63,570 nucleotides of DNA, from positions 1 through 63,570 of the forward strand of contig JAAYBZ010000165.1 in the NCBI GenBank assembly GCA_012744445.1. Direction: 5' to 3'. The notes under the pieces were generated by a model. The model saw nothing but the letters and a program-made list of their open reading frames with translations. It had not been told where the DNA came from and did no database searches. This DNA is from Myxococcales bacterium. Lineage in GTDB: Bacteria; Myxococcota_A; Polyangia; Polyangiales; Houyiibacteriaceae. Of the stretch, positions 29,786 to 30,541 are shown piece after piece; the first letter of the stretch is position 1, and each line of letters opens with the position of its first letter. The translations under genes and the position numbers were made by a program.

Positions 29786-30541
29786 ATGTTCCGATTCGCC
29801 CTCCTCGTCCCGCTCCTCTTCCTCTTCGGCTGCACCGAGCGTCTCCACGGCGCGCTCTCCGAGCGCGAGGCCAACGAGATCCTCGCCGCGCTCGCCGCGC
29901 GAGGCATCGAGGCCAAGAAGGAGCGGGAGTCCGGGCGCGGCGGCGGGAGCTTCGAGGTCCGCCTCTCCACGCGGGATCTCCCGCGCGCGCTCGCCGTTCT
30001 GAGCGAGCTCGGCCTGCCCCGTGAAGCCTCGCCCGGCCTCGACAAGCTGCTCGGCGAAGGCGGCGGCCTCGTCCCGAGCGAGCTCGAAGAGGAGGCCAAG
30101 CTCGTCGCCGTGATCCAGGCCGAGCTCACGGAGACGCTTCGCCGCATCGACGGCGTCGTCGACGCGCGCGTCCACGTGGCGCTCCCGCGCAAGCCCGGCG
30201 TCTTCGAGGCGAGCCCGCCTAGGCCACGCGCGTCCGTCTTCCTCAAGACCCGGGGCGCGCCGAGCTACGACGTCGCCGCCGTGCGCGCGCTCGTCGCGGG
30301 CGGCGTCCGCGGACTCGACGCCGACGACGTCGAGGTCGTCTCCGTGGAGGTCGGCACGTGGGCGCCCGGCGTCGTCGCTTCGCTCACGCGCGTCGGCCCC
30401 TTCGAGGTGGCCGAGAGCTCGGCGACGCCGCTGCGCATCACGCTGACGCTCTGCGTTATCTCACTATTCGCGCTATCGGCCGCGCTCGTCGCACTCATCT
30501 TGCGTTCACGCCGCAATTCACGGCTCGAAACTTCACACTGA
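29786..30541 (+). CDS. YscJ/EscJ/HrcJ (SctJ)-family lipoprotein, orphan
   Basis: Lipobox LLFLFGC. LHGALSEREANEILAALAARGIEAKKE, LSELGLP, IDGVVDARVHVALP and the C-terminal TM helix LTLCVISLFALSAALVALIL follow YscJ/EscJ along the whole length. Confidence 0.8.
   Translation: MFRFALLVPLLFLFGCTERLHGALSEREANEILAALAARGIEAKKERESGRGGGSFEVRLSTRDLPRALAVLSELGLPREASPGLDKLLGEGGGLVPSELEEEAKLVAVIQAELTETLRRIDGVVDARVHVALPRKPGVFEASPPRPRASVFLKTRGAPSYDVAAVRALVAGGVRGLDADDVEVVSVEVGTWAPGVVASLTRVGPFEVAESSATPLRITLTLCVISLFALSAALVALILRSRRNSRLETSH

Follow-up and report, generated by a model that had tools for sequence, protein, structure and literature searches.

A solitary sctJ gene beside an Mla/MCE operon as the probable ring component of a scattered type III secretion core in Polyangiales

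Contig JAAYBZ010000165.1 of a Myxococcales bacterium (GenBank assembly GCA_012744445.1), a stretch of 63,570 nucleotides (nt) analyzed here over its whole length and referred to as the window, contains a gene encoding a lipoprotein of the SctJ type, the inner-membrane ring protein of type III secretion systems (T3SS). The window contains no further T3SS gene, and sctJ is followed by the operon of an Mla/MCE transporter. The question raised by this locus is which machine, if any, the ring protein serves. Most likely, it is the ring of a T3SS core whose genes are scattered over the genome, rather than a stray relic or a partner of the lipid transporter. A probability of about two in three is assigned to the reading that this core is non-flagellar, was dispersed anciently and is carried as single genes in housekeeping neighbourhoods. 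The gene is placed in such a system because it encodes the sole ring protein of the genome, its partners are all intact, and it disappears when they do.

The open reading frame (ORF) at 29786–30541 encodes a genuine T3SS ring lipoprotein SctJ by family, profile and fold. The first-pass annotation, made from the sequence alone, had already named it as such, and all motifs quoted there are present in the product of 251 amino acids (aa): the lipobox LFLFGC at aa 11–16 (29816–29833), LSEREANEILAALAARGIEAKKE at aa 24–46, SELGLP at aa 73–78, IDGVVDARVHVALP at aa 121–134, and a hydrophobic helix near the C-terminus at aa 220–238. In the search with hidden Markov models, which had been proposed as a check, the Pfam family PF01514 (YscJ_FliF) was matched at aa 20–186 with 84.1 bits (E 1.5e-23; Pfam cut-off 24.4), and the NCBIfam model TIGR02544 (SctJ) ranked first with 136.7 bits, well above the FliF model with 35.7 bits. 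A family profile, built from 31 SctJ homologues and searched against solved structures, matched PrgK (3e-26), MxiJ (2e-24) and EscJ (6e-17); the alignment with MxiJ covers the whole protein, C-terminal helix included, and reaches aa 241.

The AlphaFold2 model, with a mean predicted local distance difference test score (pLDDT) of 86, consists of a pair of ring-building domains made of strands and helices, joined by a linker and followed by a long helix at the C-terminus. The best Foldseek matches to it are EscJ (1yj7), PrgK (2y9j and 5tcp) and MxiJ (8axn), with target template modelling scores of 0.63–0.72 over about 175 columns, including both ring-building domains. There are 24 invariant columns among the 31 homologues, and SctJ of the window keeps every family-invariant residue; those of the linker region, where pLDDT falls to 65–68, are P78, G84, L95, E101 and E102. 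According to the model, the C-terminal helix is predicted to be a transmembrane anchor, as in PrgK and MxiJ.

The source genome is a 3.77-Mb metagenome-assembled genome (MAG) of 236 contigs, 94% complete, with about 70% G+C, in which the window is contig C108. In genome-wide profile searches, sctJ was the sole PF01514 gene, and each other core family gave exactly one T3SS-type match, located on another contig. The T3SS-type matches to FHIPEP, FliP, Bac_export_1/2/3, FliI/YscN and FliMN_C all lie outside the window, in agreement with the first-pass annotation, which had found no other T3SS gene there. At the level of the genome, however, the gene is not the orphan described: seven further core genes, sctV, sctU, sctN, sctR, sctS, sctT and sctQ, are intact, each elsewhere (Table 1), which also contradicts the suggestion that sctJ is a T3SS relic. 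A displaced component of a T3SS cluster lacking its own sctJ had been considered as well; T3SS genes without their own sctJ are indeed present elsewhere in the genome, yet those genes are unclustered too.

Thus, the eight families SctJ, SctN, SctQ, SctR, SctS, SctT, SctU and SctV, the core set of Abby and Rocha, are all present and intact. Codons 1–43 of sctT lie at the end of contig C79, which overlaps the end of contig C59; sctS is thus a direct neighbour of sctT, and the number of loci for the eight genes is seven. The overlap is about 129 nt long, with about 95% protein identity inside sctT, and strain variation is the probable cause of the assembly break. The MAG is fragmented; each sct locus is supported by conserved synteny in further assemblies, including a closed one. 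Gene contexts were read from the Pfam annotation of neighbouring genes.

Genes of the core score best with Sct models, slightly below the equivalog cut-offs. The Sct model exceeds its flagellar counterpart for SctV (612 bits versus 541 for FlhA), SctU (297 versus 275) and SctN (556 versus 515), and SctQ is matched by the Sct model with 94.9 bits. The frames contain no internal stops, and the profile coverage is close to full length; the autocleavage site NPTH is retained in SctU and the P-loop GSGVGKS in SctN. Searches of the genome by phmmer with the flagellar proteins of a relative detected no FlgB, FlgC, FliF, FliG, FliJ, FliK, FlgE or FliO, and the FliF query matched only sctJ itself. FliH of the same relative, used as a probe for SctL, gave a lone match (E 0.007), which was treated as chance.

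The dispersed layout recurs in relatives, and homologues are found under names including Polyangiaceae, Sandaracinaceae and Polyangiales. Among 20 relatives searched with two chimeric queries of the T3SS proteins, orthologues of the dispersed genes were found in 16, again on separate contigs or far apart, with identities of 56–68% for the N-terminus of SctV and for SctN and 45–53% for SctU. On the closed 9.07-Mb chromosome of one of them, G012 (OZ245758.1), the loci extend from 0.438 to 8.329 Mb (Table 1). Contexts were compared by searching 14-kb regions from G012, G017 and G019, which belong to different families of the order, with the flanking proteins of the window genome (G000). The arrangement tsaD..sctU-priA was present in all three relatives, with def-fmt also in G019; dnaX-(ybaB)-recR-sctV and dnaJ-sctN recur in G012 and G017, while in G019 dnaJ and sctN are separated by an insertion; hdrD-sctR recurs in G017 and G019. 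Also recurring are the GYF protein gene, sctS-sctT and a TPR gene nearby, the group of ctaA, sctQ and the PDZ gene, and the order DEAD-kinase-sctJ-...-CC-pyrF, in which CC is the gene of a coiled-coil bitopic protein. Some of these contexts were found in only three of the four genomes. With the chances evenly balanced, a non-flagellar T3SS core that was split long ago into single genes may be kept by Polyangiales and, probably, by a large part of the class Polyangia; the contexts of these genes would have been stable since before the families diverged.

Phylogenetically, the sctJ genes of the Myxococcota type form a single clade (SH-aLRT 92), apart from SctJ of proteobacterial injectisomes, and their nearest clustered relatives are SctJ of Anaeromyxobacteraceae and Myxococcales. 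Among the 16 genomes carrying the dispersed set, a gene of this clade was detected in 11, versus none of the four genomes without it (Fisher one-sided p = 0.026). All eight genes are missing from G001, which belongs to the same genus as the source genome, from G003 and from G015; G004 contains a clustered set only.

Table 1. Positions of sctJ and its domains, of the scattered T3SS core genes and of neighbouring features. Locations without a contig name are positions in the window; the fourth column gives positions on the closed chromosome G012 (OZ245758.1)
Feature	Location	Strand	G012 (Mb)	Description, evidence or gene order
sctJ	29786-30541 (contig C108)	+	8.329	251 aa; SctJ-family inner-membrane ring lipoprotein; DEAD helicase, sctJ, mla
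Signal peptide and lipobox L-F-G-C	29786-29833	+		Predicted lipidated Cys16; Cys conserved in at least 90% of 31 homologues
Ring-building domain 1, aa 17-75	29834-30010	+		Strand-helix-strand-strand-helix (AlphaFold2); Foldseek EscJ/PrgK; PrgK profile alignment
Inter-domain linker, aa 76-98	30011-30079	+		Conserved GLP...P.G...L.P..EE motif
Ring-building domain 2, aa 99-189	30080-30352	+		Invariant VDARVH and PRASV; matches PrgK domain 2 (4oyc) and FliF RBM2
C-terminal helix, aa 210-250	30413-30535	+		Hydrophobic core aa 220-238; AlphaFold2 model, MxiJ alignment
sctV	C210:5575-7563		5.652	FHIPEP 608 bits; dnaX, ybaB, recR, sctV, gene weakly resembling outer-membrane proteins, alaS nearby
sctU	C150:3852-4877	-	0.438	tsaD ... 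sctU, priA (stop/start overlap), def, fmt
sctN	C74:2787-4124		2.587	Above FliI/YscN cut-off, T3SS_ATPase_C domain; dnaJ, 12-nt gap, sctN
sctR	C47:17327-18031	-	0.916	HdrD-like CCG/4Fe-4S gene, 57-nt gap, sctR
sctS	C79:18537-18794		0.478 (sctS/T)	At C79 end; GltJ-like gene, sctS, sctT, small TPR gene
sctT	C59:12204-12986	-	0.478 (sctS/T)	At C59 end, joined to C79 end
sctQ	C20:13221-14279		4.841	ctaA divergent from sctQ; sctQ convergent with GspC-like PDZ gene
GltJ-like gene	C79:17083-18504			5' of sctS; zinc ribbon, GYF, transmembrane segment, AgmX/PglI C-terminal tail
TPR protein gene	C59:11863-12207	-		114 aa; overlaps sctT stop by 4 nt
DEAD/DbpA RNA helicase	28042-29721	+		Conserved 5' flank of sctJ
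Promoter-like element of mla	30555-30583	+		CTTCCA, 17 nt, TACAAT; conserved in window, L007 and sctJ-less L130
mlaF1-mlaE1-mlaE2-mlaF2-mlaD (MCE) operon	30638-34847	+		Start possibly 30611; neighbour of sctJ
Coiled-coil bitopic protein gene (CC)	35020-35775	+		Between sctJ and pyrF

A second, compact set of matches with lower identity was found in seven relatives. In G012, it is a flagellar cluster (L117, G012:C1:5590000-5609900), encoding FlgB, FlgC, a 583-aa FliF, FliG, FliH, FliI, FliJ, FliK, FlgE, FliM/N, FliO/P/Q/R, FlhB and FlhA. This cluster has a FliF of its own; accordingly, the free-standing sctJ is not its ring. The source genome has no such cluster. Co-located matches of the same kind and of lower identity are seen in the six other relatives; myxobacteria are usually regarded as non-flagellated. 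In a search of the whole class, matches of the SctV, SctU or SctJ type were obtained in 178 of 201 genomes, those listed being mostly SctV, with at most four candidates scored per genome and with dispersed and clustered layouts taken together.

An export gate of SctRSTUV normally needs a ring of SctJ or FliF; SctJ proteins build such rings from roughly 24 subunits around the export apparatus. Anchored by the lipid at Cys16 and by the C-terminal helix, SctJ would oligomerise into a ring housing the SctRSTU/V export gate, and SctN and SctQ would be located on its cytoplasmic side; together, these parts would form a machine similar to the needle-less T3SS* of Myxococcus. The protein with a kinase domain, a transmembrane helix and an AgmX/PglI tail, encoded beside sctJ in relatives, and the GltJ-like protein encoded beside sctS may be new accessory parts, replacing SctD or outer-membrane components. 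The tail of the GltJ-like protein matches AgmX/PglI with 46 bits, while the tails of the kinases encoded 5' of sctJ in relatives (L010:7998-10001 and L007:8362-9891) match it weakly, with 18–25 bits, below the cut-off; neighbours alike in their TonB-like architecture are thus present at two of the scattered T3SS loci. The TPR protein encoded beside sctT weakly matches two chaperones of T3SS, SctY (E 1.6e-4) and SicA (E 5.6e-3), and is possibly a class II-like chaperone.

A number of observations weigh against the assignment of sctJ to a scattered and working core. The TIGR02544 score of SctJ is below the equivalog cut-off of 161.95 bits, which marks the window protein as a divergent member of its family, and the gene stands on a long branch in the SctJ tree. 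The ratio of nonsynonymous to synonymous substitution rates (dN/dS) of sctJ is 0.37 versus its 71%-identical orthologue in locus L007, higher than the 0.09–0.27 of MlaF2, MlaD, PyrF, MlaE2 and the DEAD helicase in the same block; the synonymous estimates are rough at 95% G+C in third codon positions. The kinase that is the usual partner of sctJ has been lost from this genome. In five of the 16 relatives having dispersed sctV, sctU and sctN, sctJ was undetected; two of these five genomes are 66–70% complete and G014 gave a partial match only, but no sctJ was found in G008, which is 92% complete, or in G018, with a completeness of 97% in 680 contigs. The loss of the whole set from G001 shows that the system is dispensable within the group. 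No terminator was found between sctJ and mlaF1, and sctJ may be co-transcribed with the mla genes. The core as described covers the eight families only, and the assembly of the scattered products into one machine is inferred.

The next reading is that SctJ forms a ring in a separate envelope module, together with the protein of kinase, GYF, transmembrane and AgmX/PglI-tail architecture seen in relatives, and independently of the scattered T3SS. Analysis by tblastn of 80 genome loci with SctJ relatives, as well as of contigs picked by identity, showed that a bitopic Ser/Thr kinase or pseudokinase is encoded directly 5' of sctJ in about 50 of about 60 loci of the Myxococcota type, often with overlapping stop and start codons. 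This protein contains a transmembrane helix and a C-terminal domain weakly matching the AgmX/PglI tail, and the pair is the tightest conserved unit of the region; the conserved partner of sctJ is this kinase or pseudokinase and not mla. The pair never adjoins other sct genes: none was found within 10 kb on either side of sctJ in about 55 related loci, nor in the 63-kb window. Moreover, sctJ is undetected in several genomes holding other dispersed genes. In the window, however, the kinase is gone, the gap from the helicase to sctJ being only 64 nt, and no homologue of its transmembrane and C-terminal part was found anywhere in the genome, which gave generic kinase-domain matches only; the genome nevertheless retains all T3SS core genes. 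In addition, the only candidate ring for the SctRSTUV gate here is this SctJ, and no genome without the dispersed set had this sctJ. A module independent of the T3SS is, accordingly, improbable. The GC hairpin at 29723-29740, after the stop codon of the helicase gene, was considered as a terminator and rejected, as it folds no better than shuffled sequence (z = 0.32).

It is somewhat less probable still that sctJ is a decaying remnant without present function in a reduced genome. Besides the long branch and the lost kinase, decay is suggested by the dN/dS of sctJ, the second highest in its block after CC (0.41), by the loss of sctJ from a sister lineage and of all eight genes from the same-genus genome, and by the small genomes of the group, 3–4 Mb versus 6–11 Mb in most relatives. 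Yet the frame is intact, all family-invariant residues are retained, the model folds confidently, dN/dS is below 1, and the seven partner genes are intact and score highly in profile searches. Although constrained, sctJ evolves fast, which fits its long branch and the reductive trend of this small-genome group. The loss of the kinase and the fast evolution suggest that the T3SS may be simplified in this lineage, or may be beginning to decay.

The genes around sctJ are those described in the first-pass annotation: the DEAD-box helicase upstream and, downstream, the asymmetric MCE transporter followed by the coiled-coil bitopic protein. Ring-forming accessory lipoproteins exist for MCE systems, for example PqiC, and the annotation had raised the possibility that SctJ was recruited as a periplasmic ring scaffold to another envelope-spanning machine, with the transporter as the candidate, to be checked by the conservation of the neighbourhood. 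This adjacency is not conserved. Among 35 related loci whose downstream sequence extends for 6 kb or more, mla adjoins sctJ in six; in 11, it lies 1.3–4.1 kb downstream and is separated from sctJ by between one and three genes, some of them on the opposite strand; in two, it is divergent and upstream of sctJ; and it is absent within 10 kb in the remaining 16. Loci without mla may still have CC and pyrF-spoU after sctJ (L015/L037, L068, G017, G019). CC stays between sctJ and pyrF even where mla is missing and is thus not a dedicated MCE accessory.

In L130, a contig of a near relative whose MlaD and DEAD helicase are 68–69% identical to those of the window, the block is represented by HisK, RR, ..., DEAD, MlaFEEFD, CC, pyrF, spoU and cinA. 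In the region L130:4591-6795, a pseudokinase gene, whose product is 40% identical to the L007 kinase, lies between the helicase gene and mla, and no trace of sctJ was found by tblastn in the 470-nt non-coding, AT-richer gap between it and mlaF1. The losses are mirror images: the window retains sctJ without the kinase, L130 retains the kinase without sctJ, and mla is intact in both.

The gap of 70 bp reported earlier between sctJ and the MCE operon holds, as 69 nt, if mlaF1 starts at ATG 30611, but becomes 96 nt with GTG 30638, which is favoured because MlaF1 of relatives is 243 aa long; GTG 30569 is a further start candidate. About 55 nt before mlaF1, beginning about 13 nt past the sctJ stop, are conserved in the window, L007 and L130 and contain CTT(C/T)CA, 17 nt and TACAAT. 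From this conservation, the element at 30555-30583 appears to be the own promoter of the mla operon, although a simple sigma-70 scan did not call it. A conserved 15-mer within this stretch, GAGTCTGTACAATCC, was considered as part of an N-terminal extension of MlaF1 and rejected; its reading phase differs between the window and L130, which points to a DNA or RNA element rather than a coding one. The leader at 30536-30640 folds unusually well (-38.4 kcal/mol, z = -3.46) and may be a regulatory leader of the operon; in L007 and L130, seemingly different GC hairpins were seen by eye at the same site. In the MCE system itself, the MlaE permease and the MlaF ATPase each occur in two different forms, and MlaD orthologues of relatives have a weak match to 'Helical_needle' (PF28544) in precomputed annotation, which suggests a heteromeric transporter with an extended MCE protein.

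A scaffold role of SctJ in the MCE transporter is thus very unlikely: co-orientation of sctJ and mla, 69–96 nt apart with no predicted terminator, the presence of mla within 5 kb of sctJ in 19 of the 35 loci and the precedent of PqiC are outweighed by strict adjacency in only six loci, with intervening genes, divergence or absence elsewhere, by L130, which keeps mla and its flanks without sctJ, by the promoter-like box of mla 3' of the sctJ stop, conserved in that locus, and by the loss of sctJ, which tracks that of T3SS genes. The MlaFEEFD operon is judged not to be part of the sctJ system, and the adjacency is ascribed to an old regional synteny block, DEAD, kinase, sctJ, (mla), CC, pyrF, spoU, with no shared function.

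With sctJ as the ring gene of a scattered core, the system is a counter-example to the textbook view of T3SS genes as tightly clustered, co-regulated and frequently transferred horizontally. Seven loci in fixed contexts, inherited vertically across the order, offer a natural test of the need for clustering in assembly and stoichiometry. If the reading is correct, the system would rank as the extreme among known multi-protein secretion machines that stay functional in the absence of operon-level clustering, and its expression would be constitutive and housekeeping-like. Cluster-based detectors would score such genomes as T3SS-negative, and annotators would call each piece an orphan. In the tree of non-flagellar T3SS, the system is on the myxobacterial side, which branches early, and its composition bears on the origin of the injectisome from the flagellum. 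No description of a single-gene T3SS layout in conserved housekeeping contexts was found in the literature; papers on Polyangia mention copies of sctV and sctR, with no layout given.

Comparison with known systems begins with the protein. SctJ of the window resembles PrgK, MxiJ, EscJ and YscJ in the lipobox cysteine and in the two ring-building domains with their linker, and shares with PrgK and MxiJ a C-terminal helix predicted to span the membrane, but it is only 21–25% identical to the SctJ proteins of solved structure. Unlike sctJ of injectisomes, its gene lies outside any sct cluster, and the usual neighbour is a membrane kinase or pseudokinase and not sctI, sctK or sctL. To PqiC, it is similar as a possible ring-forming lipoprotein whose gene adjoins an MCE transporter; the two are not known to be related in sequence or fold, and the adjacency to mla is not conserved, mla being kept where sctJ is lost.

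Like the 'Myxo' T3SS*, the system belongs to a non-flagellar lineage in Myxococcota and includes the core set J, Q, R, S, T, U, V and N. The 'Myxo' non-flagellar T3SS of Myxococcales was described, however, as compact loci with a conserved gene order (Abby and Rocha, 2012; PMC3459982), and the T3SS* of M. xanthus is one cluster (reviewed in PMC10433427), whereas the core of the window genome is distributed over seven loci. SctD, SctI and SctL are present in the M. xanthus cluster; none of them was identified here, where no profile search was aimed at them. For scattered T3SS, only loci of several genes each were reported, from Chlamydiales, Hamiltonella and one plasmid, and it was suggested that constitutive expression relaxes the selection for clustering (Abby and Rocha, 2012; PMC3459982), an idea that fits the genes found beside dnaJ, recR and priA. 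The presence of T3SS genes outside a single locus is shared with Chlamydiales and Hamiltonella, the systems of which are functional. The genes of Chlamydiales remain grouped in four or more multi-gene loci, of which three contain core genes, while those of the system described here are single genes except for one pair, each in a context conserved across the families of the order.

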